IMG/VR virus record: IMGVR_UViG_3300017783_000001
Source: a virus
Length of the DNA: 64,000 bases
Reading direction: 5' to 3' (one strand)
In this document: piece after piece, positions 3,428-63,030 of the stretch
Layout of the letters: each line of letters opens with the position of its first letter
Position numbering within the stretch: position 1 is the first letter of the stretch
Made by a program: the position numbers and the translations under genes
The notes under the pieces: model-generated
What the model saw: the letters and a program-made list of their open reading frames with translations, nothing else
Database searches by the model: none
What the model was told of the DNA's origin: nothing

Positions 3428-4846
3428 TTATGACACCTTAACAAAGAAAGAAGATAAATCAGTACTAGAAGCTGCGTATTTTATAATATCCGTACATACA
3501 TTATTTCTTTGTGTTGATGTTGCACTCATCATAGTATCTAAAAATAGTAGACACATATTCTTACTGAATATAAAACTACCACCTTTATCTAAACATTGTT
3601 TGATAAACGGTTTAACATCTACTGGATTCTTCGCATACTTCTTATATAGGACATACATATCATTTAACTTGACTTGACTACTTGGTGTTTCTTTCCAACC
3701 AGATAATAAGCCTTGTGAACCTATAGATTTTCGTATGTGTTTCTCACAATAGAAATTTAAATTACCACCACCGATTTTACCACCGGCAGCACTCAATCCT
3801 TTTATCTCTCCTTGCCAAGATGAAGAAGAGTTAAATGCTCTAAACTGAACATTCGCACTACCCATATTCATATACATATCAATTGAAGAAAAGAAATCGT
3901 TATTTTTTCCAAATACATAATTCTTATAAGCGTGTGATACTAACTTCACTCTTTCAGGAGCATTGTACTCTTCTAACTTAACGGTACTACCTAATTTCTT
4001 TAGAGAGATACCTAGTAAGAAAGTTCTAGGAGTATTTAATCTACCTGCTTTGTCTAATACTGCTTGATTTAGTATTCCCCAATCTTGCTTAAACATTGCA
4101 AGAGGATCCGAACCTGGTGTCATTGTAGTCATCCATATATCACCTGGATTCCATTTATCATCTGAAAAACTACCTGGTGCTAATGGTGCTCTACCATCTT
4201 TCTGTGCCATTTGTTTATCTATTTTTATTACTTCTTTTTTAGCTGCATATACTTTACCCATAAAAGTACTGCCTCTATGAAAGTAAACACCACCTGTAAC
4301 CTTTGATGAATACTTTTTATAAATTTCGTTTGCTGTTTTTATAAATGTACCACTTTCAATCCAATCTGATGGTACTCTATCTTTAAATGCTGTATAAGCA
4401 ACGGTAGCCTGTACATAACGAGAAGCCTTTTCCATATTGGCGTCTGTAATGTCTGATAACTTTAGTGGACCTTTTTTAACATTAAATGCTAATGAACAAT
4501 AATAACATTGTCCACTTTCAGTAATTGCGGTCACAGCTGCACCACCACCTGAACCACCTCCACCACCAAATAGTGGTGACTTATAAATTTGTGTAAGAGA
4601 TATTTCTTCTATCTTACTTCCTGTAGAAGATTTGACTTGAATAACACAAGGCCAAGCATTAGGTTTTGATACAATTGCGATACCTTCTAGTTTACGACCA
4701 CTAGATGTTTTACCTTCAACAAATCTTTCTTTGTTGTTAATCATTAATTGTACAATTTCAAAACGAGACTTACCAGCATACTTACCATTCTTGGCTGCAT
4801 ATGGTTTATTATCTCTTATAAAATCGTTCTTCGTAAAAACTGCCAT
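3428..4846 (-). CDS. Hypothetical protein with PD-(D/E)xK nuclease-like motifs
   Basis: DKWNPGDIW...GISLKK pattern; Gly-rich linker GGGGGSGGG followed by TESGQC. Confidence 0.5.
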   Translation of the reverse strand: MAVFTKNDFIRDNKPYAAKNGKYAGKSRFEIVQLMINNKERFVEGKTSSGRKLEGIAIVSKPNAWPCVIQVKSSTGSKIEEISLTQIYKSPLFGGGGGSGGGAAVTAITESGQCYYCSLAFNVKKGPLKLSDITDANMEKASRYVQATVAYTAFKDRVPSDWIESGTFIKTANEIYKKYSSKVTGGVYFHRGSTFMGKVYAAKKEVIKIDKQMAQKDGRAPLAPGSFSDDKWNPGDIWMTTMTPGSDPLAMFKQDWGILNQAVLDKAGRLNTPRTFLLGISLKKLGSTVKLEEYNAPERVKLVSHAYKNYVFGKNNDFFSSIDMYMNMGSANVQFRAFNSSSSWQGEIKGLSAAGGKIGGGNLNFYCEKHIRKSIGSQGLLSGWKETPSSQVKLNDMYVLYKKYAKNPVDVKPFIKQCLDKGGSFIFSKNMCLLFLDTMMSATSTQRNNVCTDIIKYAASSTDLSSFFVKVS

Positions 4847-4905
4847 TGTTAATTCTCCATTTATATTCTCTCTTATACTACTACATATTTATTGATTTGT
4901 CAAGC

Positions 4906-5465: not shown

Positions 5466-5729
5466 TTATTTTGGTTGCATTTCACAAAGAAAATGAGGTA
5501 TGCCTCCGTTAACTTCCCATACTCTTTCTTTATTCTGAAATCTAACTAGTGACCTAGCATCCTTTTCAAAAAAGAAGTCTTTGACAATAACATTAGTAGG
5601 TTTTTCTATTACTCTCCAGTAAATCTTACCTCTCTTCTTAATCATTGTCTTTGTGTAGTGTAGTTTTTCGCCAGGCTCTAACCGTCTACTTTGTTTTTGT
5701 TTTGTTGGTTTTGTATTTTTTCTAGGCAT
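5466..5729 (-). CDS. Hypothetical basic protein
   Basis: ORF immediately after gp41; likely start MPRKNTK at 5729. Confidence 0.6.
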   Translation of the reverse strand: MPRKNTKPTKQKQSRRLEPGEKLHYTKTMIKKRGKIYWRVIEKPTNVIVKDFFFEKDARSLVRFQNKERVWEVNGGIPHFLCEMQPK

Positions 5730-5733
5730 AAGT

Positions 5734-7098
5734 TTATACTTTAAAATCTGAAAATTTGTCGTAAGGGTCTTCAGCAAATTCTTTCTCCTGATTAGCGTCT
5801 ACAATGTTTTGTGCTTTTTGCTCTACATCATACAATCTCATCTTACTTCTATCAACGCCAATAATAAAACTACGATTGATTGAGGGATCGCTATATCTGT
5901 TCTTCAATTGTTTTACTTTCATTTGATTAAGACTATCTAACTCTTCGTTAGTCATCAAAGCAAACATAAAGTCAGCAGTAGCAGGTAGACCAAAACTTTC
6001 AGAAGTATCTTCTAATCCAATATCAGTAGATACAAAACCACTTCTTGTTGTTTGTGTAGCAGTAAATATAGGTAATTTAAATTCTACTGCAAGACCTCTT
6101 AACTCTTCTGCAATTGCTTTGATATAGAAATAAGATGATATGTTACCACCTTTAAATCTACTTGAAGCACATATGTTAAGATAATCTATGAATACAACAT
6201 CAGGTTTAAAACTTTTCTTTAATGCAAGTTCATTTAATAATCCTTTAAAGTGTCCACTATGAGCAGACGCTGTAGGATATTCTTTTACGATTAATGTACC
6301 AGGACTTTTTGCTTTTAACTTTTTAATTCTATCATCAAACATATCTTTAGGTAAAGCGTGTAAGTCATCTGTGGTAACATCTAATAAATTACTATCAATT
6401 CTTTCTGCGATTCTTTCTTCTGCCATCTCCATTGTAATGTATAAAACATTCTTACCTTCAAGTAATGAAGTAGCAGCGAGGTGACACATAAACAAAGATT
6501 TACCTACACCAGTACCGGCAAGACATACATTCAATGTCTTCTGTGGCACACCGCCTTTAGTTATTCTATTGAAATATTGTAAATCAAAAGGAAGTCTTAA
6601 TTCTTTCCTATGGTAATAATCAAATCTATCATCTGCATCCCCAATGTAATCGTGCCCAATGTGATTATCAAAAGACACAGCAAGAGCTTCAGATAAAATT
6701 GAAGGAATGGCCTCCGCATTTCTTTCCTTGTCTTTTCCATCCAAGATTTTAATGCCGTTAAGTACTGCATTGTTTACCGCCTTGTCTTTACAGAATTTCT
6801 CCGTAGTGTCAAACAACCATTGTATATCACTCTCTTGTGGAGTTAATCCGTTTATTGTTGTTTTAATAGCCTTAAACTCTTCCTCGTTAATATCTTTACG
6901 ATTGTTTAATTCTATAATCAAGGTCTCTTTTGTAGGAAGATTATTATATTTAGTTATGAAATCATAGATTGATGTAAATAAAAGTTTATCACTTCTTGTG
7001 CCAAAGTATTCATCTTTTAAAAACGGCAATACCTTTCTAGTATATTCTTCATTGAATATTAAGTTTGTCAGTATTGTGTCTTCAAGTCTATTTGTCAT
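5734..7098 (-). CDS. gp41: Replicative DNA helicase (DnaB-like)
   Basis: LAGTGVGKS, ITMEMAEERIAERID, IDYLNI, QLKNRY; start MTNRLED inferred. Confidence 0.95.
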   Translation of the reverse strand: MTNRLEDTILTNLIFNEEYTRKVLPFLKDEYFGTRSDKLLFTSIYDFITKYNNLPTKETLIIELNNRKDINEEEFKAIKTTINGLTPQESDIQWLFDTTEKFCKDKAVNNAVLNGIKILDGKDKERNAEAIPSILSEALAVSFDNHIGHDYIGDADDRFDYYHRKELRLPFDLQYFNRITKGGVPQKTLNVCLAGTGVGKSLFMCHLAATSLLEGKNVLYITMEMAEERIAERIDSNLLDVTTDDLHALPKDMFDDRIKKLKAKSPGTLIVKEYPTASAHSGHFKGLLNELALKKSFKPDVVFIDYLNICASSRFKGGNISSYFYIKAIAEELRGLAVEFKLPIFTATQTTRSGFVSTDIGLEDTSESFGLPATADFMFALMTNEELDSLNQMKVKQLKNRYSDPSINRSFIIGVDRSKMRLYDVEQKAQNIVDANQEKEFAEDPYDKFSDFKV

Positions 7099-7405: not shown

Positions 7406-8384
7406 CTATCTTCTCTAATATCTCTTTTGTAAAGTACTCTTCTGGATTGTCAATGATTGTTTTACCAAACACTTTCTTACCATCAGGTGTTTCAATTCTA
7501 GTAGATACTTTTTTGAAGATACCTTCATCAACAGCAATATCTAATAGTCCATAGTATTTGTCTAAACCTTTTGTATAAGTTAACAATACATCAATTATAG
7601 CATTCTCTTTTGTTAACCTTGACTTATAGTTTTTACAATGAATAATATTACCGACAACTTCTGTGCCGTCTTTTACTTTTCTCTTTGATAGATAAACAAT
7701 ATTACTAGCGGCGTATTTCAATCCTGAACCACCACCCATTTCTTTTTGAGGGAACATAGAACCAATAACATCATAAGTGTGATTGGTCATAATCATAGGA
7801 ATATTTGCTTTACCAAGTTTTAATGTTAAAACTCTAAATGTAGATTTGACAATTTGACTTCTTGTCATATCTCTTGTTTCTTTACCGTCAGCAGTATCTT
7901 CCATTTCTTTTGTAGTAGATAACATACCTAAACTATCTAATACAAACATAATAGGTTTTCTAGCACTCTCTGGTTGTTCTAGGTACTTGTCTACTACTTT
8001 GATTGCTTGTGCTCTAAATTCTTGTACGGTTGCAACTGGTACAACTACAAATCTTTTACTATCAATGCCTCTATCTTCAATCATATTTTTAGATACGGCA
8101 CTTTCACTTTCAAAGTAAATAACACCTGCGTCTTTATCTGATTCTAAAAAATGTTTACAGATACCTAATGCGAAAAATGTTTTACCTGTAGCAGCTTCAC
8201 CTGCGATAGCAGTAATCTTATTACCTGGCATACCACCATATATACTGCCTGATAGTAAGGCATTTAATGAATAACAACCTGTATCAACAAAATTTGATAC
8301 ATCACCAGCATCCACACCTTCACTTGCAAGTGTGGCATATTCATTGCCAGTTTCTTTTATTATATCTTTTAAAAAATCACTCAT
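7371..8384 (-). CDS. uvsX: RecA-like recombinase
   Basis: [30 protein letters not shown]. Confidence 0.95.
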
Positions 8385-8484: not shown

Positions 8485-9717
8485 TCATAAAAAGTTTTCT
8501 AATGTACCTTTTCTACTACCAGAGAAGAAGTCATAATCCTTAGGACCAAAACACCAAACATTCTCAATATACTTCATTGCCATAAATTCGTTTAGTTCTT
8601 CTTTAGTTTTAAACTTTGCATTTCCTTGAGGTCGTTGCATAATAACCATACCGATTTGACCTAAAAACTTTTCTCTATGTCTATTTATTAACTCATCACT
8701 TGACCTATATCTTACATTCTTAATCTTTGGATCCATAATGTTAACTAACATAAACTTTGATTTGTTCATAGTCTTTTCTGCAACAGGTAAATAGAAGTCG
8801 TCTCTCCACTTCTCATATTCATTGAATTTAAACCACGATTGATTTTCTTCTTTCTCACCACCTTTATTATATTGTTCAGTACTAAAGTATGGTGGACTTG
8901 TAAAGGCACAATCTATATCTGGTAATTCATCATAAGGCAAATCTTCTGCACCACAATTATATATCTTAACTTTTTTATTAGGAAAGAATTTGCTATACTC
9001 TTCAATCTGTTTCATATATTGTTTATATGTGTTAGGGTTTGGGTCGCAACCATAATACTCTTCTGCATTACTACTAAAGAAACCTGCAAGTCTATCACCC
9101 CAACCACAAGAAGTATCTAGTACCGTTCTTGCCTTTGTCATATCATATAAAGTTTTTGCAACAACAGGTTTAAATTGTGTTGCAATATATGTACCTAATC
9201 TAAAGGCACTCATATATGTACCTTCTTTTAAATGTCGTTCACTATTAATACCACGCCAGATAGGACCTAGACAACGCCATACATCTTTTGCATTACCATT
9301 TTGCCATACATCTATAGGTGCTTTGAAACCATAACTACTACAATTTAATCTTAAATGTTGATGAAAATAATTAGATGATATATTATATGTACTAGGAGCG
9401 TCAATCAATCCTAGACCATACTTATCAAAACCATATTCATAATCATCATACTTCTCAAATACTTTCTTTTCAATCTGTTCTTTAGGCGTACATATCTTTG
9501 AAGTATCAAACTTTGATAAGTCAATAATACTTTTTCTCATATCTTCATATGATATTTGTTTGAGAGGAAACTTTGGTCTTTCAGTAGCAATATATTCTGC
9601 TAGTAATTCTCTAAATTTTTCTTTACCTAGTTCTTCTGTCCATCTATCAAACTGGATAGTGTCCATAATAGGCAAACCGTTTTCATCAGCGTATTGTTTA
9701 AGGTCTAGGGTCTTCAT
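8485..9717 (-). CDS. Amino (N4-C/N6-A) DNA methyltransferase
   Basis: SAM motif VLDTSCGWGDRL followed by catalytic FTSPPYF. Confidence 0.8.
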   Translation of the reverse strand: MKTLDLKQYADENGLPIMDTIQFDRWTEELGKEKFRELLAEYIATERPKFPLKQISYEDMRKSIIDLSKFDTSKICTPKEQIEKKVFEKYDDYEYGFDKYGLGLIDAPSTYNISSNYFHQHLRLNCSSYGFKAPIDVWQNGNAKDVWRCLGPIWRGINSERHLKEGTYMSAFRLGTYIATQFKPVVAKTLYDMTKARTVLDTSCGWGDRLAGFFSSNAEEYYGCDPNPNTYKQYMKQIEEYSKFFPNKKVKIYNCGAEDLPYDELPDIDCAFTSPPYFSTEQYNKGGEKEENQSWFKFNEYEKWRDDFYLPVAEKTMNKSKFMLVNIMDPKIKNVRYRSSDELINRHREKFLGQIGMVIMQRPQGNAKFKTKEELNEFMAMKYIENVWCFGPKDYDFFSGSRKGTLENFL

Positions 9718-9795: not shown

Positions 9796-10392
9796 TCAAG
9801 CACCCATACCTGGCCAACCTTCACTTAATCCAAGGTCTTCCCATTTAGTATTACTCTCTTGTACATTTAGGTAAGGAAACTCACCATTGAGTAATTTATA
9901 TTCATCTACATAACTTTTTTCTATCGTATGATAATCTACACTAATGTAATGATATTGATAGTCACCATTCATTTTTTGTATTTGGACTTTAACTTCTGGT
10001 AGATTATAATAATAAACTTCTATTGTTTTACCTGCTTTGACTTGTTGATTGATATAGTTCCATACTGCATAAGTTCTTTTAGAATTACCTTCTCTAAAAC
10101 CACCTAGATAAGCATTGATTGTACCTTCAATACCACCTTTAGTTTGACTACCACCAATCTTAACTATTTTATCATCACAAGTAATAATGTATATTTTACC
10201 ACAGGAATTTTGTCGTTCTTGTTTTGATACTGCAAACTTAACTTTCAATGGTGTTTCTGGTAGATGTAAATAACCTGGGTCTTTATATATCTGTCCTAAA
10301 CATAACCAGTTGTCTAGTTTTAATTGTTGAATTTTATTTTTCTTTGCATATCCTAATTGTTCGGCAAGAGCATTCATACTTCGTTCCCCCAA
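9796..10392 (-). CDS. GIY-YIG family endonuclease
   Basis: GKIYII...VKIGGS, later IEKSY (catalytic E) and PYLNVQE (conserved N). Confidence 0.65.
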   Translation of the reverse strand: MGERSMNALAEQLGYAKKNKIQQLKLDNWLCLGQIYKDPGYLHLPETPLKVKFAVSKQERQNSCGKIYIITCDDKIVKIGGSQTKGGIEGTINAYLGGFREGNSKRTYAVWNYINQQVKAGKTIEVYYYNLPEVKVQIQKMNGDYQYHYISVDYHTIEKSYVDEYKLLNGEFPYLNVQESNTKWEDLGLSEGWPGMGA

Positions 10393-10913
10393 CTATCCCA
10401 ACCTTCTCTCTTCTGTCTTGCAAAGAGTTCAATGTATGGACCGTTTAATAAGTTTTCAATATGTGTATACATTATATCTGGTTTCTTACTATGTCGTTCT
10501 CTTTGTGATACGACTAATTGTGGTACTGATTTAGATTTTCTTTTAGGTTTACCTTTAGTTGCAAGTAAACACATTTCAGGATTACCTCTAGTCCAATATC
10601 CTAAACCTGTAAAGAAACCTAGTTTATTCTTATTTGTTTTTGCCCAAGTAAATCCTACCGTCTTATACTGAAAACCCCAGGCGTCTATTACATCAAATGC
10701 TAAATCTAAACTATGGTCAACAACCCACATCAATAAAGTACAATTGTCATCTGCAATATCTTTTACTGGTAAGTCTGTTATATCTTTAAGTTCTAAAGTC
10801 TGATAGTGTTGACTAGGATTTCTGTCATCACCTTTCGGACTAAACGATTTAAAAGACCACGGTGGGTCTGCATAGATTACACTATACTTTTTTTTCGGTA
10901 AGTTTATACTCAA
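10374..10913 (-). CDS. MT-A70 family adenine methyltransferase
   Basis: IYADPPW, HSKKPD, IELFAR, GWDSWGNE. Confidence 0.9.
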   Translation of the reverse strand: MSINLPKKKYSVIYADPPWSFKSFSPKGDDRNPSQHYQTLELKDITDLPVKDIADDNCTLLMWVVDHSLDLAFDVIDAWGFQYKTVGFTWAKTNKNKLGFFTGLGYWTRGNPEMCLLATKGKPKRKSKSVPQLVVSQRERHSKKPDIMYTHIENLLNGPYIELFARQKREGWDSWGNEV

Positions 10914-11379
10914 AATTTTGCGTCTCTTTGTTAATTAATATTTGTTTTGCACCATTACGAATATGAAAGTGTGTTGCCATAGGTGTAAGAGGTGATAATG
11001 TTACCACTCTTTCAATGTGATTTGCTTTTGCATATTCTAATACCTTATTAATAATCTCTTTACCTGCACCTCGTTTACGAGACCATACCGTGTATGCAAT
11101 AGCATTTCGTTTCTCGTTCTTTAGGTCTGCAAGTTCAGACATCATATCTAATTCTTTTACACTTGTAGGAATATCATTTGTAAACGCAATACAAATAATG
11201 CCTTCAATCTCTTCATTATATTTTAAACCAAATATCTTTCTACCTTTAGTAATACGCCAACCTAATGTTAGTTCAGGTCTTACTGGATCCTCTGATACAT
11301 CAATGTCATCTAACTCTACTAGTTCAGTTCCATTAACCCATCTAAAAAAATCATCTGTCTTATCTTTAAAAAATTTCAT
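10882..11379 (-). CDS. Conserved phage protein, GNAT-like fold
   Basis: YTVWSRKRGAG (acetyl-CoA loop-like), TLSP...MATHFHIRNGA. Confidence 0.55.
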   Translation of the reverse strand: MKFFKDKTDDFFRWVNGTELVELDDIDVSEDPVRPELTLGWRITKGRKIFGLKYNEEIEGIICIAFTNDIPTSVKELDMMSELADLKNEKRNAIAYTVWSRKRGAGKEIINKVLEYAKANHIERVVTLSPLTPMATHFHIRNGAKQILINKETQNFEYKLTEKKV

Positions 11380-14699: not shown

Positions 14700-16193
14700 T
14701 TAGTCTTTGTCAATAGGTGGTAATCGTTTTGATAAAACAAATGTTCTATTAGGATTAACAGACGCATTGAATAATCTGATTACTTCTCTATTTAGTAATA
14801 CATCTGAACCAGACCTTGGTCGTTGGTCAAGTCCAAATTCTATATCAGGATATGTGAAACCGTTAAAGGTAAGTGGTAATTGAATTGTTGTTCTAGTTTC
14901 TGATGGTTCTTCACCTTCTGCATTAGCACGAAAGACTTTACTCTCCCCGTACTTCGGTGCTGAATATGTCTTACCATTATACTTCCAGGTTACCTTTTTA
15001 CCTTCTACTTTAATATTTTCAGCGTGCATTGAACAAGCGTGAGCACCGTTACCAGTATCCATTTTTGCTCTCATCTTACCGATGTCGCCTACTTCTATTG
15101 TTTCTAACCAACCTACTTCTGAAATAGATTGTCTGTCCCAATTCTTTCTTTCTGATAACCATTTAATTAAGTTAGTTACCAGTTTATCTCCTTTGATTGC
15201 ACCACTATTTTCTGGATCCGAATAGAAGTCTTTATAAACATATCCTTCGTATTCTGCACCAGTACCAGGTGAACCATTGACTTCTAATACATAAGGTTTT
15301 CCTTTGTGTATAATGTGGTCAACTCCACATAGATACGCCTTGGACGCCCTGCTGGCTCGTAGTATGATGTCTATTTCCTCGTCTTTCAACTTATAAGGAA
15401 CAGCGTCAGCACCTCTATGTGTATTAGTTCTAAAATCGTCTGAGCCTTGAATTCTTTTTGTACTTGCAAAGATTTTATTATCTACTACAAATGTTCTAAT
15501 GTCAAAATCACTTGGCATAAATTCTTGTATTAACAATTCTGCACCGTGTTTCCATAGTGCCTGAATAGTTGATACTAGTCCGTCATAACTATCTACCTTT
15601 ACAACACCGATACCTTGTGTACCAGTTAATGACTTTAAGATTACAGGAAACTTATCTACACCACCAATTAATTCTAATGCGTCATCTATATTTTTTTCGT
15701 TAGATATAAATGCTGTTTTAGGTGTTGGTATACCAAACTTCTCAAATAGTAAAGCAGAAGTAAGTTTGTTATTACAAGTTAACATTGCGTTTCTTGTATT
15801 ACACATAAATGAACCAGAGTTTTGAAAAGCAGAAACGATTGATAAACCACTTTCATCTTCTACAGAACCTGCTCTAGTAATACAAACGGTATCTTTACCT
15901 ATAAATGTATATTCAGTATCTTTACCATCAAAATTATAAACGGTTAAAGTATTTTTTTCTTCGTCTTTACCTGTGATAATAGCGTGTCTAGTTTCAATAA
16001 CTATACACTTAATCTTTAATTTTTCGCAAGCGTCATTGATTAACTTAACCGTCAGTTCTTTACTTTCCTTACCACCAACTTTTCTCTTCTTCAAGTCAGG
16101 ATTAGTTTTAGTAATTACTGCAATTGTGATTGGTTTGTTTTCTCTATCTAAAGTTTGTTCAGATAAGAAATCGGTAAAGTTTTGTACTTGCAT
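14700..16193 (-). CDS. RimK-like ATP-grasp ligase fused to a RimB/retropepsin-like protease
   Basis: PVILKSLTGTQGIGV, LLIQEF, DFRTNTHRG, LEVNGSPG (ATP-grasp); C-terminal VGWLE...AKMDTGN...SMHA...VLLNR (aspartic protease). Confidence 0.85.
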   Translation of the reverse strand: MQVQNFTDFLSEQTLDRENKPITIAVITKTNPDLKKRKVGGKESKELTVKLINDACEKLKIKCIVIETRHAIITGKDEEKNTLTVYNFDGKDTEYTFIGKDTVCITRAGSVEDESGLSIVSAFQNSGSFMCNTRNAMLTCNNKLTSALLFEKFGIPTPKTAFISNEKNIDDALELIGGVDKFPVILKSLTGTQGIGVVKVDSYDGLVSTIQALWKHGAELLIQEFMPSDFDIRTFVVDNKIFASTKRIQGSDDFRTNTHRGADAVPYKLKDEEIDIILRASRASKAYLCGVDHIIHKGKPYVLEVNGSPGTGAEYEGYVYKDFYSDPENSGAIKGDKLVTNLIKWLSERKNWDRQSISEVGWLETIEVGDIGKMRAKMDTGNGAHACSMHAENIKVEGKKVTWKYNGKTYSAPKYGESKVFRANAEGEEPSETRTTIQLPLTFNGFTYPDIEFGLDQRPRSGSDVLLNREVIRLFNASVNPNRTFVLSKRLPPIDKD

Positions 16194-17034: not shown

Positions 17035-17978
17035 TATTTAAACTTACAATTTGCCATTATCTCGGTAAGACAAGCGACCATATTGATTTCTTGGTCTGCG
17101 ACAAAAGCCGCCTTGTACTGATAACCAGCGATAACTAAAACTGCCTGTGGTATAGATTTAGGATCAAGTGCTTTCTGCAATACTTCGTATATATTACGGA
17201 ACATACTTGTAGGTTCTTTATCTATGTTTTGAATAACCCACTTTCGCATATCATTAAATCTTTTTTCTTTTAATGTAGCGACTAGTTCTTTGTTATTTGC
17301 TTCAGATAATGTAAATAAAATACCACTATCAATCTTACCTCTTACAGAATATCTTTGAAGTTCATTGATAGTCCGTCTGAAATCAGGAAAGTATTTAATA
17401 ATAAGTTCTGCCAAAACTTTCTTATCAAAAGGAATAGATTGTTCATCTAATACTTTACCTAATCTAATCATCATAGCGTCAGCACACTTCTTCTTTTGTC
17501 CGTTGACAATTTTAAAGTCTACTACCGTACAACGACTATGTAATGGTGGTATGATTTTGTTTTTGAAATTACAAGTTAGAATAAATCTACAATTGTTATG
17601 GAATTCTTCCATAAATGCTCTCATTGCAGGTTGTACAGAATCAGCATTTGTATAATCTGCTTCATCTATAATAACTACTTTATGATTAGCGTCTTCTGTT
17701 AAAGACACCGTACTTGCAAAGTTCTTAATTTTAGTTCTTAATGTATCAATTTGTCTACCTTCATCTGAACCATTGATGATAAGATAATCACATTTTAACT
17801 CTTCACATAAGGCACGAGCAACCGTTGTCTTACCTGTACCTGCTGTACCTGATAAGAGTAGATTTGGTATCTCGCCTTGTTTTAAAAAGTTTTGAAAAGT
17901 TGATTTTATATCTTCTGGTAAGATACACTCTTCAATTTTCTTCGGTCGGTATTTCTCAACCCACAAAAAGTCTGCCAT
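17034..17978 (-). CDS. gp44: Clamp loader large subunit
   Basis: LWVEKYRP, GTAGTGKTT, IIDEAD, SRC. Confidence 0.97.
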   Translation of the reverse strand: MADFLWVEKYRPKKIEECILPEDIKSTFQNFLKQGEIPNLLLSGTAGTGKTTVARALCEELKCDYLIINGSDEGRQIDTLRTKIKNFASTVSLTEDANHKVVIIDEADYTNADSVQPAMRAFMEEFHNNCRFILTCNFKNKIIPPLHSRCTVVDFKIVNGQKKKCADAMMIRLGKVLDEQSIPFDKKVLAELIIKYFPDFRRTINELQRYSVRGKIDSGILFTLSEANNKELVATLKEKRFNDMRKWVIQNIDKEPTSMFRNIYEVLQKALDPKSIPQAVLVIAGYQYKAAFVADQEINMVACLTEIMANCKFK

Positions 17979-20317: not shown

Positions 20318-20527
20318 CTAAAAGCCTCTTTGTGCTTTTAATTTCTTTTGTTTCTTCTTCCAGGCAGCAGCCATTTCTTTATTCTTACGGATCCTTTTAT
20401 CACTAGGTTTCTCGTAATATTGTCTTTGGCGTATCTCCTTGACTAGTCCTTCTTTAGCAACTTTTTTCTTAAGCACTCTCATTGCTTGTTCCAAGTTACC
20501 ATTACGAACGGTTACAAGTATACTCAA
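20318..20527 (-). CDS. rpsU: Ribosomal protein bS21
   Basis: VRNGNLEQAMRVLKKK, RQYYEKPS. Confidence 0.92.
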   Translation of the reverse strand: MSILVTVRNGNLEQAMRVLKKKVAKEGLVKEIRQRQYYEKPSDKRIRKNKEMAAAWKKKQKKLKAQRGF

Positions 20528-20898: not shown

Positions 20899-22152
20899 TT
20901 AGACGAAGTCCTCTTCGGATTCGTCATCTTCCTCACTATCATTGGACATCATTTGTTCCTTTAATGCTGTGTCTTTCTGCTCTTGAGCAATACTCTCGGC
21001 AGTAGCACCGGCATCCACTTTCGTGTACAAGTCAACAAAAGAAGCTTTTGTATCGTTATCAAATCTATTAGTACATAGTTCAATCGCCTTCATCTTATTT
21101 CCAAAGATTGAATAAGCTTGTACAATGTGTACTAATCTTCTTGTACTGATAATCTCATCAACCCCACCGTCAAAGTAGGTCTTTCTGATTACATCAGCCC
21201 AAGTTGATAACTTCTCAACATACTGAACATCTTTCTTACCTGATTGAGCAAGAGTGTTGTTAAGTATTTTTTGTTCAGTTTTAGCAGATGGATACTGCTG
21301 TTCAAAGGTAACTGGAAATCTTTCTAGGAAAGCTTCGTTCAGTATGTTAGTACCGATAAACTTACCATCATCACTTCCTTGACCTTTAGTATTAGCAGTA
21401 GCGACTACATTGAAACCAGCACTTGGTTTAACGAATTTGTTAATCTTCTTAACATAAACTCCGTTACCTTCAAGGATTGGTTGTAGACACATAATCTTGT
21501 TAGAAGCAAGGTCAACTTCATCAAGGAGCAATATTGCACCTCTCTCCATCGCCTCAATAACAGGACCATTCTGCCAAACGGTTTGACCGTCTCTTAATCT
21601 GTAACCTCCAAGTAAATCATCTTCATCGGTTTCAATTGTAATGTTTACTCTTATCAGTTCTCTCTTTGCCTCAGCGGCAGCTTGAACAACTGAAAAAGTT
21701 TTACCATTACCAGATAGACCGGTTATGAATATTGGATAAAATTGTTTTGACTTAACAATGTTTCTAACATCAGGATGATTTCCGAAAGGAACGAAAGTAG
21801 CGTCTTTGTTCGGAACAAGGTTATCAACTAAAGACGAAACAACATACGCAGCTTCAGAAACTTTAGTAGTCTCTTCAACTTTTGGTATTGTTGGTGTTTC
21901 AGTTGCCTTATCATTTAAGACATTAGGCATTGTAATTGGAGTAGCAGTTGGCACTTCGCCATTCGTAGGAATCTTATAAGTTCCTCTGCCTACTCTTAAC
22001 TCTGGATTCCTAACTAACCATTGTGGTTTGAAATTCATACCGAGAGATTTAGATACTGATAATAATTCTGCATTATCTAAAGTATCTTTTTTCGGAAACA
22101 TCTTTGTACAAGCGTTTACGAATTCTTGTTGTTTTTCATTTAGTGTTATCAT
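20899..22152 (-). CDS. cobS: CobS-like MoxR AAA+ ATPase
   Basis: GLSGNGKT, LLLDEVD, ATANTKG, NEAFLERF, ISTRRL; start MITLN after AAGGA. Confidence 0.9.
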   Translation of the reverse strand: MITLNEKQQEFVNACTKMFPKKDTLDNAELLSVSKSLGMNFKPQWLVRNPELRVGRGTYKIPTNGEVPTATPITMPNVLNDKATETPTIPKVEETTKVSEAAYVVSSLVDNLVPNKDATFVPFGNHPDVRNIVKSKQFYPIFITGLSGNGKTFSVVQAAAEAKRELIRVNITIETDEDDLLGGYRLRDGQTVWQNGPVIEAMERGAILLLDEVDLASNKIMCLQPILEGNGVYVKKINKFVKPSAGFNVVATANTKGQGSDDGKFIGTNILNEAFLERFPVTFEQQYPSAKTEQKILNNTLAQSGKKDVQYVEKLSTWADVIRKTYFDGGVDEIISTRRLVHIVQAYSIFGNKMKAIELCTNRFDNDTKASFVDLYTKVDAGATAESIAQEQKDTALKEQMMSNDSEEDDESEEDFV

Positions 22153-38372: not shown

Positions 38373-38435
38373 AATATCCTCCGACTATTACTAGTCATTA
38401 ATTGCATAGTGATAAGTCTTTTATCACTCTAATAT

Positions 38436-38466: not shown

Positions 38467-38518
38467 GTATTTGATGTATATAATAAAATCTGAATATACT
38501 AATATTATAATTTGGGCT

Positions 38519-39917: not shown

Positions 39918-39959
39918 ATCTTGTTCCTCTCTCCTATTATTATTTTATTAACTTGAACA

Positions 39960-41887: not shown

Positions 41888-42283
41888 TTATCTAAATTCA
41901 ACAACAATCGTATAATTATCGTTCAATGCAAAGTCTTTAGTACTTAAATAGACAAAACCGTTAGGGTTTGTCGCATTATTTACTATGTCATTTCCAGCAT
42001 CCCTAAAGTCTAAATACCCTTGTCCTGATAATAATAATGATGTTGTATTTTCAGTAGCGCCTCCCCAAGCAATCTCTACTGCTGATTTTCTGTTTGCAGT
42101 ATTAATAGAATACCACACTTTTGCAATCTCTTTAGTACCATCTGCTGTCATAAAGTTAGAAGTTGTAGGATTAGCAATCACGGTGTTTGTTTCACCTGTG
42201 CCGTCAGAATAGTTAGTTTGTTTTACAACATACTTAACACCTGCTGTATCCGATACTATCTGTTGTGTTACCAAATCTGCCAT
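41888..42283 (-). CDS. Hypothetical virion-associated protein
   Basis: Located in the head operon; beta-rich; ends in YTIVVEFR. Confidence 0.6.
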   Translation of the reverse strand: MADLVTQQIVSDTAGVKYVVKQTNYSDGTGETNTVIANPTTSNFMTADGTKEIAKVWYSINTANRKSAVEIAWGGATENTTSLLLSGQGYLDFRDAGNDIVNNATNPNGFVYLSTKDFALNDNYTIVVEFR

Positions 42284-43222: not shown

Positions 43223-44743
43223 TTACATAATGTCGTTATCGTCAGGTACACTAGTTTGTGGAGCTGCGATAAGACCATCATCAATTTCTTTTTTAATTTG
43301 ATTATCAATTTGTTCAATTTCTCTTTCAGATTGTTTTAAAATACTTTGTCGTACAAATTTTACACTAAAGTATTTACCAACATAATCTCTCACATCATTT
43401 GCTAATGCTATTCTTTCTCTTAATAGTTCAGCGTCTTTCAGTTCCGAGAAATGACCGTCAGCAAGAAAATCATATTTAATTTTTTCACTTATTGACTGCC
43501 AATCTTCTTCATTTATAACTGCTTTTAAAACTAATTGAGTTCTAAGCAAGTCATTAAATAAATCTGTAAATTTCTTTCTTAATCTATGTACAAACTTTGT
43601 AAATTTAAGTTCGTCTCTTGTGATTTCAGTTGTTCTACCTAAATTGAAACCTTGACTTCCTTCTAATCTACTTACTGGTACATTTAAACTTCTGTATAAT
43701 TTTTTCTGGAAGTATTCAATATCAGATACTTCACCTAGGTTTTGTCCACCAGGTAATGTAGTAATATCAGTTCCTCTTCCACCTTCTCTACTAGGTAACC
43801 AAAAGTCTTCAAGCATAGACATATAGTTTCTATCGTCTCTAATCTCTCCTGTACTTGCGTCATAGACAAGTTTGTTTCTGTATCTTGCCATAACATCACG
43901 GAGATATTGCTCTGCTTTTACTTTAGGTAAATTACCTACATCAATTTTAAATATTCTTCTTTCAGGTGCTCTTGCAATTCTGTAAATAACAACAGCGTCT
44001 TCAATCATTCTTAATTGATTGACAGGTTTAATTGCCTTGTGCATATAACCCATAACCATATTCTTGTTCAAGTCTACTAATCCACTTGGACAAAATGAGA
44101 TAGCGTCTGTGGCAATCTTAATACCACCACTTGCCATACCAGGTCCTGCAACACCTTTTTCATTGTATAAAAAATATTCGTTGTAGTCGTGTACCACTTG
44201 TATGTTTGCCATAGCAACTGGACGACCTTTTTTAATCTCTCGTATTTTTTTAATCTTACGAGGATCAATATATCTTAATTCTGTTATACCTTTTACAGGT
44301 GATTCTCTATCAATAACTTTATGATAGTAAATTCTTCCATCAACATACCATCTTCTGAATATGTCGTGTCCTTTTGTACTAAAGTTCATTAACCTTAGAA
44401 TTTCTTTAAATTCATCTTCAACCTTACGCTTAACTTTATCGCTAAAGTCCGTGTCAGATAAATCTACTCGCACCGGGTCTCTATCTATCTCGTTTGCTAC
44501 TATAGCCTCGTTGACAATATCTTCAACAGCCATATCACATTCAGGATGGATTGAAATCTCTCTATACCTTCTAATTAAGTCTTGCTCTGTCTTGGCATTA
44601 CCTTCCATATCAAGGTATTGTCCAAAGTAACCTCCGGCAGCGACGGTTTGTGTACCGTCATCTGCCTTAGGTTGAGTAAAACTTTGCTTCGGGTCTGGAG
44701 TATCTTTAACTCTAGTAATTTGAAAACCGAAAAGTTCCGCCAT
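43223..44743 (-). CDS. gp20: Portal protein
   Basis: FRRWYVDGR, YRIARAPERRIF, EDFWLPSREG, ITRDELKF. Confidence 0.97.
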   Translation of the reverse strand: MAELFGFQITRVKDTPDPKQSFTQPKADDGTQTVAAGGYFGQYLDMEGNAKTEQDLIRRYREISIHPECDMAVEDIVNEAIVANEIDRDPVRVDLSDTDFSDKVKRKVEDEFKEILRLMNFSTKGHDIFRRWYVDGRIYYHKVIDRESPVKGITELRYIDPRKIKKIREIKKGRPVAMANIQVVHDYNEYFLYNEKGVAGPGMASGGIKIATDAISFCPSGLVDLNKNMVMGYMHKAIKPVNQLRMIEDAVVIYRIARAPERRIFKIDVGNLPKVKAEQYLRDVMARYRNKLVYDASTGEIRDDRNYMSMLEDFWLPSREGGRGTDITTLPGGQNLGEVSDIEYFQKKLYRSLNVPVSRLEGSQGFNLGRTTEITRDELKFTKFVHRLRKKFTDLFNDLLRTQLVLKAVINEEDWQSISEKIKYDFLADGHFSELKDAELLRERIALANDVRDYVGKYFSVKFVRQSILKQSEREIEQIDNQIKKEIDDGLIAAPQTSVPDDNDIM

Positions 44744-47269: not shown

Positions 47270-47404
47270 TAGGTTTTCTCCTCTATTTTATTGTTTGTAT
47301 TTTTATAAAAATACATAATGTTTTCCTTTGTCAAAATTCGTATTATTCATACGCCCATATTCAAATTTCTCAATCGTTTATATTTATGAAATAGGGGATC
47401 TTCA

Positions 47405-49036
47405 TTAACTACCTTTGCGTACCACGGGATGCCATACCTGTCCATATTCGTCCGAAAATGGTTGCTCTTCTGGTGTATCAACACCATTATCAACGAACCC
47501 AAACGGCGCCATATCTTGTTCTATTAACTTCTCTTGTTCTTTGTACATTTCTGCTCTGATATTTCTATCAGTCATTTCTTTAAAATACCTTTGGTTTGCA
47601 ACCCAACCTAATATAGTTAGACAAGTCATATAATCATCATTACAACCTTCTTCTGCTTGCCAACTTTGATTTTTTCTTGTAAAGGTGGACATTTCTCCGA
47701 CAATATTAAAGTCATTGATAACAAGTTTATCACTCTCAATAATTGCTTTAATATTTGCAGTACCCATTTTCTTAATCTGTTTAGTCATTCGTACACCTAA
47801 TTGTGAACCTCTTTGACTGAACATTGCACCAAGTATTTGTCCTGCTCTACCTTTTTGTGTAGTCATTAGTATATTATCATATTCTAATTCATAATGTAAA
47901 CCATCTGAAATCTGAGCGCCAATATCATTGACTTCTACAAGTATATGTGCTTTGTTAAATTGAGTACAAACTTTCGCAATCATTTCAGGAAACAATATAG
48001 GTTTAATTTCATTGTCTCTAAATGTTGCAACAACTTTATATGGTAAATCGGTTACATCAAATATAATAAACGCTGAGAAATCTTTTAGTGTACCTCTGGC
48101 AACATCAACCGTACATAAGTAAGTATGGCCTTTTATAGGTTCTTCAAAGATACTCAATCGTCCATTTGTTTTAAGTGGTGTCTTATACGGTGTCGCTTTG
48201 ATTTTAGCAGGACTGATAAGTGTATCAATACTTCCTAAAAACTCACACTCAAACTCACTAGCAAATTGAGACTCACTAGTGTTTCTTATTGTTTCTTCTT
48301 TCCACTTATTATCTCTACCTGGTACTTCTGACCAATGTACTTCAATAGGTATGTAATCGTTTTGTCCTGCTTCAGCGTCAACCCATAGTTTATAAAATTG
48401 ATTCATTCCGTGAGGAGTTGAAACAATAATAACTTTAGTTGACTTACCAGAAGTAATCGTAGGATAAACGGAACTAAAAAATTGTTCGGCAATAGTTGTA
48501 GGTACGAAAGCAAACTCGTCAAGGAAGATAATGTTATATGAACCTCCTCGTACAGCACTTGAAGATGTTGCAGCTGCTACTACTTTACTTCCATTCTCTA
48601 ATTCTATATTACCTTTATTCCAGTTTAACACACCTTGTTGTAACCATTTTGGTAAATTCTCATATGCAAGTTGTAGTCTTCCTAATATATCTCTTGCAGT
48701 AGAAGATTTGTTAGCAAGAATTGCTATATTACAATTAGGATTAAACAACGCATAGTGTAATAGATATGATATAGTTGTTGTAGACTTACCTGATTGTCTA
48801 GGTAGTTTACAAATCGTAAATCTATTTTCGTGTATTGTATTTACAATTTTTTCTTGGAAAGGATACATATCAAAAGGTACTAGTCCTTCGTCAAGTGAAA
48901 CAATTTGTACATACTTCTTCATAAAGTATATAGGATTATTTTCACACTTCTTAAACTCTTTAATCTCGTCCGAAGTAAACTCTTGTGGTGTGTTTACTTT
49001 TTTTAGATTAGGGTTACCTAGATATGCGTCTGACAT
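47405..49036 (-). CDS. gp17: Terminase large subunit
   Basis: YLGNPNLK, PRQSGKST, IFLDEFAF, STPHG. Confidence 0.97.
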   Translation of the reverse strand: MSDAYLGNPNLKKVNTPQEFTSDEIKEFKKCENNPIYFMKKYVQIVSLDEGLVPFDMYPFQEKIVNTIHENRFTICKLPRQSGKSTTTISYLLHYALFNPNCNIAILANKSSTARDILGRLQLAYENLPKWLQQGVLNWNKGNIELENGSKVVAAATSSSAVRGGSYNIIFLDEFAFVPTTIAEQFFSSVYPTITSGKSTKVIIVSTPHGMNQFYKLWVDAEAGQNDYIPIEVHWSEVPGRDNKWKEETIRNTSESQFASEFECEFLGSIDTLISPAKIKATPYKTPLKTNGRLSIFEEPIKGHTYLCTVDVARGTLKDFSAFIIFDVTDLPYKVVATFRDNEIKPILFPEMIAKVCTQFNKAHILVEVNDIGAQISDGLHYELEYDNILMTTQKGRAGQILGAMFSQRGSQLGVRMTKQIKKMGTANIKAIIESDKLVINDFNIVGEMSTFTRKNQSWQAEEGCNDDYMTCLTILGWVANQRYFKEMTDRNIRAEMYKEQEKLIEQDMAPFGFVDNGVDTPEEQPFSDEYGQVWHPVVRKGS

Positions 49037-49039: not shown

Positions 49040-49528
49040 TTAATCTTTTCCTTCAATTGGTGTATCTTTAAAAGGATCGTTTGCTGTGTCTCTATTATTC
49101 TCATCAAACTTTTTATCTTTTAAATGTTTTTGTAGTTCAGCAGTTGAACCTACAAACAAAGCATTCTTAATGTTATTAGTTGTCTTGTTCGGTACATCTT
49201 TTAGTTTAGATAATTTACTTTGTAAGTCTTGTAATTTATCAACGGTGTCGGCTACATTTTTAATTAATGCACCTGCGACTTCGTATGCTCTCGGGTGTTG
49301 CCCTTCTTTTGCAACATCTAAAATGCCTTGTATTGCGTCTTGTCCTCGTTCAATTAAATTATAGTAATTCTCTCTACTATATTTGTAATCGTTTTCTATA
49401 TCATCTTTCTTTGGGTCTTCAACTCTAGGTACAGGTACAGACTTCTCTTGCAACATTAAATCTGCTACAGGAGTACTCTCTTCTTTGATACCTAAAATAT
49501 TATTTACTTTGTCTTCTAGTTTACCCAT
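49040..49528 (-). CDS. gp16: Terminase small subunit
   Basis: DYKYSRENYY, HPRAYEV, LFVGSTAELQK. Confidence 0.93.
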   Translation of the reverse strand: MGKLEDKVNNILGIKEESTPVADLMLQEKSVPVPRVEDPKKDDIENDYKYSRENYYNLIERGQDAIQGILDVAKEGQHPRAYEVAGALIKNVADTVDKLQDLQSKLSKLKDVPNKTTNNIKNALFVGSTAELQKHLKDKKFDENNRDTANDPFKDTPIEGKD

Positions 49529-50165: not shown

Positions 50166-50978
50166 TTATGTATCACTTCCACTTGTTGGATCATATTTCT
50201 TTCCATCATTGAAGAATGATATATTTGTTGTGAATCCAAAATCGTCACCAGGTTTTGCTGTCGTAGGATTCGGTGTTATCACTATTCTTTCTTCTCTTGC
50301 TTTATCTATTGTATCTGTACCAAGGTCTGTTTGTACTTTTCTAACAACACCTTGATTTGAAGATGGTCCATATAGATAAGTTTTTGCAGTAAAGTTAATC
50401 GTATAAATTACTGCTCTTCTTGTATTAAAGTCTCCGTCATAATTATCTTCGTATGCAATGTCGCCTATAACAATAGGTACATCACGCTTAATATTTAAGT
50501 CTGGTATCATATTTATAGTCACCGTATAATCAGGTTGAAAATACGGAACTATCTGTTCCATAATCTGTAATCCGTTTTCTGCTGTTGCAGTAAAGATAAA
50601 CAAAGAATAAGTTATATTATACGGAACAGGTGTATAATTAAACTTCATATTGTTTTGTTGAAAAGAAGTAGAACCATCATCTGTTGTTGTTCTAGTTTTT
50701 GTCAACTTATTTAATTTTCTACTAGGGTCATATTGCAGACCAGATATTTCAAAACCCATACGAGGTAGAATAGTTGAAAATTGTGTATCTTGCAAGTCAG
50801 GTTGTTGTGTTAATCTTGTAATAAACTTTTCTTTAGGTGCATATGCAAGAGGCACCGTAAATCGTTTTACAACTGAACCATTTGCGTCTTTTGTTTGTAC
50901 AACAATCTTATTAAAAATCTGACCAAATGCAATAGTCAGTTTTCTTAATCCTTCGTTATAAAAATGTGTTCCGAACAT
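50166..50978 (-). CDS. gp15: Tail sheath stabilizer / completion protein
   Basis: VPLAYAPKEKF, LPRMGFE, EQIVPYFQP. Confidence 0.93.
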   Translation of the reverse strand: MFGTHFYNEGLRKLTIAFGQIFNKIVVQTKDANGSVVKRFTVPLAYAPKEKFITRLTQQPDLQDTQFSTILPRMGFEISGLQYDPSRKLNKLTKTRTTTDDGSTSFQQNNMKFNYTPVPYNITYSLFIFTATAENGLQIMEQIVPYFQPDYTVTINMIPDLNIKRDVPIVIGDIAYEDNYDGDFNTRRAVIYTINFTAKTYLYGPSSNQGVVRKVQTDLGTDTIDKAREERIVITPNPTTAKPGDDFGFTTNISFFNDGKKYDPTSGSDT

Positions 50979-61900: not shown

Positions 61901-63030
61901 TTAATATAAATTGTTTTTCTTGCGTGTGCAGAAACACCACCTGATGTTTGTCCTGCCCAAGCATTTGATACTTGTAAGTATGTGTTATTACTAGCGTCTG
62001 TCAATACAGATACAACGGTATCTTTTAATTGAGTTCCGTCTGAATGTAAATGTCCTTGTAATGATGGACTTGCTTCTGTTTCCCAACCAGGTACATCACC
62101 TTGGTCAAAAGAAAGTTTATGAGCAACACCAGCACCACCTCTTCTTGTATCTTCAGCAATTGCAGCCGCTTCAGTTTTGTACATAGGTGAAAAGAATCCA
62201 CTATCACCATTTGAAGCAGTACCTTTAACATAGTAAGGTCCATCAGGATCTTGTCCTAATGACTTACCAGTATCGCCGGCATTGTGTATACCGTCAGAAG
62301 TATAAGAGAAACCTAATGGATAATATTTGTTATTAGGTTTGTCTTGTGAAAATCTGTATGTGTGTCCTTCTTTAAAGTTTTCCCAGTTTCTATAACCTTC
62401 AAATTGTCTACCTTTAGTATCGTTACCTACTCGGTTATCAATTTTGAAATCTGGAACACCACCTGATACATTAACCTCTACACTAAAAGTATTGTGTACA
62501 GGCATATAATGGTATTTAAAGTAATTTTGTTCGTAATGATTATATGTGTCTAATTGGTCATAGTCATCTTCGCATTGAGCAAACATTGCGTCATACTCAC
62601 CCATTAAGTTTTGTTGATGGCGAACAACCGTTCCTAATGATGAATCAATATAATCGTGTCTAATTTCATTTGCACCGTCTTCGTTAGAGCCGTAAGTAGA
62701 GTTTTTTGTGATAGGATTACCGTCTTGGTCAGTTCTACTTGTTTCGCCTCTTCTTTCATTTTCAGTCCAATATTGTGTATGATTAAAAGTGCTATCTACA
62801 CCATTGAAGTTCGGGTCATTTGACCAGAAGTCACCAGTATAGTCTTTTGGATTATATCCAAATATTTTTGTACCAGGAGCATACGCAGAAGAACCATCAG
62901 CAAAGTATTCTTGTTTCATAATCCACATTGCGTTATTATGATAAACAATATCGTCTCGTCTGTATTGTTGGTCCTTATTGAATTCTCCTTGGAATTGTAA
63001 TTTAATTCTTCCGAGATTAATTTTTGCCAT
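58927..63030 (-). CDS. Large fibre protein: CBM-like modules, cupredoxin-like domains and RCC1 propeller
   Basis: MAKINLGRIK start; YKFDQSD..N.GH...YCNAHSGMG; WGYNGYGEIG and WGRNNIGQLG repeats; late promoter at 63060-67. Confidence 0.75.
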   Translation of the reverse strand: MAKINLGRIKLQFQGEFNKDQQYRRDDIVYHNNAMWIMKQEYFADGSSAYAPGTKIFGYNPKDYTGDFWSNDPNFNGVDSTFNHTQYWTENERRGETSRTDQDGNPITKNSTYGSNEDGANEIRHDYIDSSLGTVVRHQQNLMGEYDAMFAQCEDDYDQLDTYNHYEQNYFKYHYMPVHNTFSVEVNVSGGVPDFKIDNRVGNDTKGRQFEGYRNWENFKEGHTYRFSQDKPNNKYYPLGFSYTSDGIHNAGDTGKSLGQDPDGPYYVKGTASNGDSGFFSPMYKTEAAAIAEDTRRGGAGVAHKLSFDQGDVPGWETEASPSLQGHLHSDGTQLKDTVVSVLTDASNNTYLQVSNAWAGQTSGGVSAHARKTIYINTGDSTEYHSITGSTHSYVYVQGALKVGSNVSAVITQQRDDTTTTNDSAGRKILLVNGKPVYQLVGEASTATVGGIAGAYQAITNAGAGTTTALGASPTSNENLVDLYMPKLTDPTANVERTMQVSVANPGSGNKYYIDGVLPTATSIMLEEGKTYKFDQSDSTNAGHLLKLSTTSDGTHGGGAELTAGVKYVGTPGNRGAYTEIKLRNGTAKLYLYCNAHSGMGQAAETFDVSTNLGKTYAPGNIKKWQGYNKNGVVKYYLNNIQVDENTYIETFFNDNNTKDRNYPRTMPNGKVKGGNKYTFEHMAGRYVEITIPYQATQSDAESTKIYPFCLEPTTTARQTSGMYNTFGWDIEKSWRGYRHWDKVQSSMRFRGEFSPNTQYNYNDIVSYKPFKRLSTGEKFYKHGTGLYRCLRDNRGRPPQHGFQEPTRSPLMTKSTVTSGRLTGRSEHEQNNETGKNYPAHIQSYHNCWESWAGMNNQEQGAGVWFPNKGPIAWPYKHGHSSGANIYRCHMYIDKNGSVWTIGHGTSSSNMEQDRSSSYFREVTFRWRDFYNSENRNEGGYNERRSSKWTRYDRMRTPRAIQIEMSYDGTMILFDNGQVFHGGYGSHGQQGTGYDGAPGSAMSPDGLEDVHFIKIAMKLMNEDSTHTPCGLTDDGDVYTWGYNGYGEIGDGRTQNAYGPKRIPREFFNDEKIIDILATGGDSTSFYARTSQDNIYGWGRNNIGQLGDTTTTDKYRPVLMTGFVAADNGGIAVWQGDAHSSNSAFYILDGNGFIWATGYNGYGNFVDNSTSNRTQLTQSTASPNGDIADFWTMYWNGYHTTFMRLKNGETWTAGHSGGYYNSGDGGTGTNQAPVQVDKITNLKEVCICNTYSDQGRSYWLTDNGEFFSQGRDVYGSMPNSVAGDNWNGEDGTYKPFHAFVPAGTRIRTMCIQGIDQSTSYYGLQPMVGTEDGQVLLWGYSNNNNLGHHASATYSSTGRSQMWNAGIGR

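Follow-up and report, generated by a model that had tools for sequence, protein, structure and literature searches.

The window analysed here is the whole 64,000-nucleotide stretch of the IMG/VR virus record IMGVR_UViG_3300017783_000001, and our subject is a set of short DNA words, GATC and GCATC/GATGC among them, that are nearly missing from it except where a particular base adjoins or completes them. The window has 33.7% G+C, and every open reading frame (ORF) of more than 100 amino acids lies on its minus strand. A Pfam scan of 40 window ORFs found a T4-like gene set with replication, recombination and head and tail functions, namely gp43 polymerase, clamp, clamp loader, RegA, UvsX, UvsY, UvsW, gp46/47, capsid, portal, sheath and terminase. 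The closest named phages are the Pelagibacter phages Mosig and HTVC008M, whose DNA is 72-83% identical to it in parts; cyanomyophages come next. The window phage belongs with the pelagimyophages, a clade of T4-like marine phages. Two IMG/VR contigs served as stand-ins for the remainder of its genome: G1, which is 97-98% identical to window positions 32430-64000 and extends 29 kb past the window, and G005, which is ~88-90% identical and syntenic across the whole window. We also used a complete 177-kb IMG/VR genome (G2), a survey of 160 fetched IMG/VR loci and, as controls, the podophages HTVC010P, HTVC011P and HTVC019P, which have the same isolation host strain as HTVC008M and Mosig. Expected counts came from an order-1 Markov model, a maximal-order Markov model and synonymous-codon shuffles, in which synonymous codons were permuted within each gene so that every protein and the codon usage of each gene were kept. 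Unless otherwise stated, paired counts below are observed/expected and refer to the window.

GATC occurs only 16 times by exhaustive count (starting at 4105, 5886, 8730, 11286, 15215, 17162, 20390, 23358, 30344, 39716, 40919, 44263, 47397, 49075, 50189 and 62247), against 150 expected under the order-1 model, 178 under the maximal-order model and 136 ± 8 in the shuffles. All 16 copies have a G before them on the plus strand, and both HGATCC on the plus strand and HGATCD have zero copies. Nine of the 16 are GGATCC, located at 4104..4109 (coding strand TCG GAT CCT), 8729..8734 (shared with G005 and G2), 11285..11290 (shared with G005 and Mosig), 15214..15219 (TCG GAT CCA), 20389..20394 (AGG ATC CGT), 23357..23362, 30343..30348, 39715..39720 (in the major capsid gene and retained in G005, G2 and Mosig) and 40918..40923 (GCG GAT CCA). 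The other seven carry the flank on one side only, all on the plus strand: GGATC(G) at 5885..5889 (coding strand GAT CCC) and 49074..49078, GGATC(A) at 17161..17165, 44262..44266 and 50188..50192, and GGATC(T) at 47396..47400, which is intergenic, and at 62246..62250. Between relatives these sites switch to GGGTCN, the difference being GAT or GAC at Asp-Pro, and we therefore rejected the idea that GGATCC is a conserved functional element.

GCATC behaves in the same way. On the plus strand it is found ten times, nine of them as GCATCC (5557..5562, 6635..6640, 8308..8313, 21011..21016, 31220..31225, 32033..32038, 33603..33608, 36168..36173 and 41997..42002), and its reverse complement GATGC is found twice, both times as GGATGC (39865..39870 and 47427..47432). 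Both orientations are thus depleted, and the 12 copies compare with 80 ± 6 in the shuffles. The spared hexamers themselves are not depleted in that comparison, with 9 GGATCC against 5.2 ± 1.9 and 11 GCATCC plus GGATGC against 7.6. A sequence-only reading had noticed these patterns by eye, placing each GATC at the G before it, and the full count bears it out: GATC is very rare and always GGATC (16 of 16), more than half of the copies are GGATCC, and GCATC/GATGC survives almost only as GCATCC/GGATGC (11 of 12, the exception being a GCATC(G) at 38662..38666 on the plus strand, in the capsid gene).

The codon data show how these words are avoided within genes. By our gene list, 13 of the 14 in-gene GATC copies are GAT-CCN (Asp-Pro), the site at 20389 being the sole other, and GAT is used for Asp in 0 of 58 cases where the next codon starts with C and is not a Pro codon. 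Asp-Ala uses GAC in 75 of 85 cases, in agreement with the sequence-only reading, which had described rare codons at the surviving sites and Asp-Ala as mostly GAC GCN; after a G-ending codon, GAT-GCN is used in 9 of 10 cases, and otherwise in only 1 of 75. Val-Thr, which is always GTNACN, occurs in 43 of 43 cases after a G-ending codon (27) or with ACC (17), a rare codon that makes up 7% of Thr codons, and the dipeptide itself is depleted (43 against 76). The codon preceding GAT-CCN ends in G in 7 of 13 cases, against 11% of codons generally, and is often a rare one. It could be argued that the whole pattern is an artefact of codon usage or dipeptides, or chance, given that nearly all surviving GATC is Asp-Pro and that GGT, the main Gly codon, inflates GGTNAC counts. 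The shuffles refute this: they expect 84 HGATCD (lowest shuffle value 62), 23.4 coding-strand GGATCD (lowest 12) and 75 ± 6 unflanked GTNAC (lowest 57), none of which is observed, and the sparing of GTNAC is reverse-complement symmetric. With the depletion upheld under codon-aware and Markov models alike (16 GATC against 136-178), we exclude codon or dipeptide bias on the shuffle and codon-pair data, and give such an artefact next to no credence.

The same conditional avoidance extends to other words. GTNAC survives solely in the row with a 5' G and the column with a 3' C, with 132/67 for these forms and 0/158 for the rest. Within ACNGT, ACCGT plus ACGGT amount to 146/49 and ACAGT plus ACTGT to 0/180, so that the apparent purge of ACWGT (0 copies) is a purge of ACNGT that exempts the CC/GG variants. 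TCNNGA with an inner CC or GG gives 75/52, against 2/116 with neither, and GATATC gives 5/4 against 0/9. A single rule describes these words: a site is spared when one of its specified Cs is directly followed by C or, equivalently, when a G precedes a specified G. Under this rule GATC divides into 16/44 with it and 0/106 without it, and GCATC into 11/17 and 1/41. The sparing base is always G or C and never A or T, the base beyond the CC is unconstrained, and the flank rule is reverse-complement symmetric.

Words that offer no specified C that a C can follow are simply purged, as with CATG (0/220), ACGT (0/151), TCGA (1/113), CGCG (0/20) and CASTG (5/95). For CATG the zero compares with 112-220 expected, and for ACGT with 109-151, across composition, Markov and codon-preserving nulls. 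Short words of the Type II kind that lie this far below all three nulls are the signature of restriction-site avoidance, as the sequence-only reading had proposed when it ascribed the depletion to selection against restriction sites. The rule accounts for the fact that CATG, ACGT, TCGA and CGCG are never spared. CCATG, in which the C of the site is the second of a CC, is never spared either (0/65 in the window, 0/116 in G005 and 0/189 in G2), and therefore only the first C of CC counts.

Several simpler descriptions were rejected on these grounds. GGAT or ATCC, which the sequence-only reading had named as the protected context, fails because GGATC and GGATGC are merely two instances of the rule, and the same sparing is seen outside GGAT, in GGTNAC/GTNACC, ACCGT/ACGGT, TCCNGA/TCNGGA and GGATATC. 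A bare 5' G flank was replaced by the specified C followed by C, which also covers the degenerate inner positions. A rule in which both Cs of CC count, or an SC/GS context, was discarded, as CCATG is at zero and the purge still takes in unflanked GCGC and every CGCG. Adenine modification beside GG was rejected as well, as the A would need to sit on either strand.

The few survivors that break the rule cluster in the capsid and scaffold genes, at window positions 38662-40321, and comprise GCATCG at 38662, CAGTG at 39443, CACTG at 39818 and the only TCGA of the window, at 40318. The alignment with G1 is interrupted just upstream (37293-38487). These rule-breakers may reflect a recent module exchange or strong protein constraint.

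Other words show patterns of their own. CTNAG is depleted (33/216), and its survivors are GCTNAG in 32 of 44 cases in the window and the tail of G1 and in 47 of 48 cases in G2, the others in the window being CCTNAG(G); CTNAG never survives with A or T on both sides. GAACT is scarce on the plus strand alone, in the window and also in G1, with 6 copies against 50 expected, all 6 of them GGAACT and thus also with a 5' G, at normal numbers of AGTTC (111/102). Such a strand bias would be expected if the phage avoided a Type III enzyme requiring site pairs in inverted orientation. Finally, GGGCC/GGCCC stands at 0/13 in the window though HGGCCD occurs 22 times, at 0/36 in Mosig and near zero in podophages and cyanophages; as these other phages share it, this loss is a separate and widespread avoidance.

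The sparing of sites in which a C follows a specified C is a trait of the pelagimyophage clade, being found in the window lineage, HTVC008M, Mosig and two IMG/VR genomes. In HTVC008M the counts with and without the rule are 83/86 and 0/208 for GATC, 43/96 and 0/232 for GANTC, and 141/100 and 0/227 for TCNNGA. G2 gives 121/114 and 0/256 for GATC, and G005 gives 249/119 and 0/281 for GTNAC and 262/83 and 0/323 for ACNGT. In Mosig, all 19 copies of GATC are GGATCC. Of the 160 IMG/VR loci, 55 purge unflanked GATC (1/1042), with 221/408 for one flank and 102/39 for both, and in 25 loci GTNAC gives 0/528 unflanked, 313/210 with one flank and 30/21 with both. The cover that GATC needs differs by lineage: one strand suffices in G2 and HTVC008M, and both are needed in Mosig. 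The window lineage is intermediate, with GGATCC neutral, coding-strand HGATCC at 0.3 of expectation and coding-strand GGATCD absent. The 2.6-fold over-representation of GGATCC in the GATC-purging phages (102/39, loci L004-L177) is compensatory selection toward the doubly covered form.

Podophages of the same host behave differently. HTVC011P and HTVC019P have GATC at 0/43 with the rule and 0/109 without it, and GANTC at 0/50 and 7/126, and they also purge CCGG (0/19), CCWGG (0/46), GGWCC (0/31), GGCC (0/59) and GGATG; HTVC010P has CTNAG at 0/130. The myophages, by contrast, tolerate or over-use these five words, with counts for CCGG (51/55, 53/55 and 30/30) and CCWGG (136/83, 125/87 and 69/35). 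Since podophages of the same host purge the CC-flanked copies, the protection belongs to the myophages and not to the host enzymes. Among T4-like cyanophages, the avoidance of GATC in S-RIM8 depends only weakly on the flank, and GCGC and CCGG are purged outright in P-SSM2; as neither follows the rule, T4-type repair alone is insufficient for it. The sparing is therefore a property of pelagimyophage DNA, not of host enzymes or T4-type repair.

How could a phage make such sites safe? We would suggest that Type II restriction enzymes of the hosts drove the phage to purge many short target words, and that the clade would in addition shield its own DNA at CC/GG steps. We infer that this protection is most likely a covalent base modification, set after replication on the 5' C of CC or its paired G, for example N4-methylcytosine (m4C). 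A marked C in a position read by the enzyme would leave the site uncut and let it escape selection, and the other copies would be eliminated. One marked strand would be enough for GTNAC, ACNGT and TCNNGA, and for GATC in the window lineage only the doubly marked GGATCC would be fully neutral. That the first C of CC would be the modified base is read from the footprint, in which sparing needs a C directly after a specified C and CCATG is never spared. In our judgement, a phage-borne DNA modification directed at CC/GG probably explains the sparing, a view that we hold at little better than even confidence.

Some observations weigh against it. CTNAG survives next to a 5' G (GCTNAG), and in the window next to a 5' C too, which lies outside what the rule predicts. 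One-flank GATC consistently favours copies whose coding strand reads GATCC; in the window it is strand-asymmetric, with 7 coding-strand HGATCC against 23.8 expected and no GGATCD against 23.4. The remaining difficulties concern the enzyme. The candidate writers of the window, two proteins with the motif TSPPY that we call MT410 and MT382, score 22.5 and 21.9 bits against Pfam N6_N4_Mtase, below the cut-off of 26.7, and the AlphaFold2 (AF2) model for these TSPPY proteins (predicted local distance difference test, pLDDT, 81) resembles generic class I methyltransferases at template modelling (TM) scores of ~0.3, RNA enzymes for N2-methylguanosine and N6-methyladenosine included. G2 has both proteins, yet it purges CCGG (1/69). 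MT410, MT382 and MT231, a further methyltransferase of the window, are absent from Mosig, which of the four window methyltransferases has the MT-A70 protein alone, and HTVC008M has no match to PF00145, PF01555, PF05063, PF02086 or PF01702 and no jackhmmer match to MT410, MT231 or the MT-A70 protein.

Three other explanations have to be weighed against a CC/GG-directed modification. Several phage methyltransferases could be at work, each with a longer recognition sequence that includes the flank (BamHI-like GGATCC, BstEII-like GGTNACC, FokI-like GGATG); the window has four methyltransferase-like genes, marine myovirus-like genomes average 2.2 methyltransferase genes and several m4C motifs (PMC8919816), and Mosig and the close relatives of the window phage spare only the full palindrome GGATCC. 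However, GTNAC in the window needs only a single flank, as does GATC in G2 and HTVC008M, and three site families obey the rule in HTVC008M, where no methyltransferase is detectable. Moreover, at least six site families obey one single-base rule, including the degenerate positions of ACNGT and TCNNGA, which exceeds the number of genes, and a sparing base that is G or C in every family also speaks against separate enzymes; we regard this explanation as unlikely. The alternative that myophages meet other hosts than the podophages do, whose enzymes exclude the CC/GG variants and recognize, for example, ACWGT and not ACNGT, seems to us very improbable. ACWGT alone could be a genuine specificity, and the purged word sets differ strongly among close relatives, which points to different enzyme repertoires, but the enzymes for GATC, GANTC, GTNAC, GATATC, GCATC and TCNNGA would all need to discriminate against a G or C flank, and to do so in several phage lineages, always with the same base. 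We know of no enzyme class with such flank discrimination.

It is also conceivable that no modification is involved: enzymes would cut sites next to GG/CC poorly, and T4-like phages would outlast slow cleavage by means of repair through recombination, fast shut-off of the host or anti-restriction proteins that they inject, so that only well-cut sites are purged. Flanking sequence does affect restriction cleavage rates in general, and the repair genes of the window include UvsX, UvsY, UvsW and genes of the gp46/47 type. Against this, CC-flanked sites are at or above expectation and the others at exactly zero, a binary outcome across at least six unrelated specificities, and CCATG, with its CC step at equal distance, is never spared. 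The podophages of the same host purge the flanked copies completely, and the rule is missing from S-RIM8 and P-SSM2, whose repair genes are of the same kind. We therefore hold the absence of any modification to be improbable.

If a CC/GG-directed modification is responsible, the window offers candidates for its writer. The window phage encodes predicted DNA methyltransferases, with Pfam matches for an MT-A70 adenine methyltransferase (10374..10913, minus strand; DPPW, 101.5 bits) and for MT231, a beta-class N6_N4 DNA methyltransferase (26558..27253, minus strand; 71.7 bits). MT231, the sole clear N6_N4 DNA methyltransferase, has TSLPD in place of the motif IV (D/N/S)PP(Y/F), and its activity or target may be unusual. 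MT410 (8485..9717, minus strand) is a protein of 410 amino acids with a predicted methyltransferase fold, and MT382 (24808..25956, minus strand) is its paralogue at 27% identity. Both carry the amino-methyltransferase motif IV (S/D/N)PP(Y/F), with FTSPPY at residues 274 and 280, and a D-x-S-x-G-x-G-x-R upstream as the S-adenosylmethionine-binding motif I, both motifs being invariant in 17 homologues; such homologues are frequent in marine viral contigs. MT410 and MT382 are thus candidates for the writer in the window lineage only: across the relatives, the spared context does not go together with a methyltransferase gene (HTVC008M, Mosig), and as general writers they were rejected as insufficient, being absent from these two phages. 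The sequence-only reading had suggested a phage methyltransferase or the modification cluster, and this link is not supported, as Mosig is without three of them and HTVC008M obeys the rule without a detectable DNA methyltransferase. Its claim that the survivors define a protected context belonging to the phage lineage was well founded, the podophages of the same host purging CC-flanked GATC and GANTC altogether; its motif has to be replaced, CC/GG standing in for GGAT, and the window methyltransferases are not supported as the cause.

Because HTVC008M has none of the known families, a new writer family is a live possibility, and it is tempting to speculate that pelagimyophages mark every CC/GG step with an enzyme that belongs to none of the known DNA methyltransferase families, although we rate this as possible rather than probable. 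C5-methyltransferases (PF00145) gave no match in HTVC008M, Mosig, G1 or G2 and none among the 40 window ORFs scanned. A 7-deazaguanine modification was rejected, there being no TGT/DpdA homologue (PF01702) in the same four relatives, and no queuosine-pathway genes turned up among the 40 ORFs. A GNAT protein beside the MT-A70 gene (10882-11379) was considered as a Mom-like writer and is unsupported, with no sequence match to any chain in the PDB, Mom included; its homologues are found only in the window lineage and Mosig and are missing from HTVC008M and G2.

A crude presence/absence screen left a single clade-specific non-structural family, that of an MptE-like protein of ~265 amino acids. This pelagimyophage-specific protein has two to three paralogues in HTVC008M, and none was found in P-SSM2 or S-RIM8. 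Its locus in G1 (L097:772-2527) lies ~10 kb beyond the right end of the window, and there the gene adjoins one for a radical-SAM/SPASM protein. As a writer, the G1 gene (L097:772-1566) is a lead only, and its AF2 model is too poor to use (pLDDT 52).

Two further features of the window concern neighbouring genes. Between MT410 and the MT-A70 gene lies an ORF for a GIY-YIG-type endonuclease (9796-10392, minus strand; PHROG 1111 'endonuclease', no Pfam match). It is an insertion relative to G005, whose alignment jumps window positions 9801-10395, and it seems to be a mobile or homing endonuclease, not a member of a fixed restriction-modification trio. An early-gene cluster at 272-2129 on the minus strand encodes a Zeta-toxin/AAA_33-type kinase (272-946), a 98-amino-acid SET-domain protein (943-1239), MazG (1223-1540) and an adenylate/dNMP kinase (1530-2129).

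SAR11/OM43-type bacteria are the most numerous cells in the sea, and pelagimyophages are among the most abundant ocean phages. If the modification is real, it would be a new DNA-marking system in phages of these bacteria, aimed at the 5' C of the dinucleotide CC, and it would explain why pelagimyophages tolerate the CCGG, CCWGG and GGWCC that co-occurring podophages must purge. More generally, conditional site avoidance can predict both a modification motif and the enzymes that it blocks from sequence alone, and HTVC008M and Mosig, both in culture, offer ready systems for a test.

The avoidance itself resembles the known avoidance of short palindromes by phages, in that words of 4-6 bp lie at least 10-fold below codon-aware expectation, asymmetric ones are depleted in both orientations, and the set varies among relatives. 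It differs in being conditional: copies in which C follows the specified C are at or above expectation, and the genome therefore records the protected context too. We found no publication describing conditional avoidance in pelagimyophages. Among known protections, 7-deazaguanine DNA modification, with motifs of 2-3 nucleotides in phages CAjan and 9g, is alike in partly replacing guanines in a short context and conferring broad restriction resistance (PMC5567051), and unlike in its genes: the search of the four relatives returned no TGT/DpdA homologue, and that of the 40 window ORFs no queuosine-pathway gene. Mom of phage Mu, a GNAT-fold enzyme responsible for adenine N6-carbamoylmethylation in the context SAS (PMC13219725, PMC7261163), is similar in that one phage enzyme guards against many restriction enzymes through a context that is very short and degenerate, but S-A-S does not fit GGATC, GGTNAC or ACCGT, and the window GNAT shows no sequence match to it.

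Closer parallels come from cytosine methylation. Single-molecule real-time (SMRT) metaepigenomics of marine viruses (Hiraoka et al. 2022) detected m4C in Myoviridae-like genomes, at CCWGG, GGWCC, CCNGG, GGHCC and RGCY, and showed podo- and siphoviruses to be nearly free of methylation (PMC8919816). Marking of marine myovirus-like genomes at CC/GG motifs fits the contrast between myophages and podophages that we observe, although those motifs are palindromes of 4-5 bp and not bare CC, the genomes are labelled only as Myoviridae-like, and no link to conditional avoidance was drawn there (PMC8919816). M.CviPII and M.CviQIX of the chloroviruses differ in being C5-methyltransferases (PF00145) of eukaryotic algal viruses that are paired with a nicking enzyme. 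Like the system that we propose, however, they are virus-encoded and have a dinucleotide target, and they methylate the first C of CC, the very position implied by the rule (PMC9636781).

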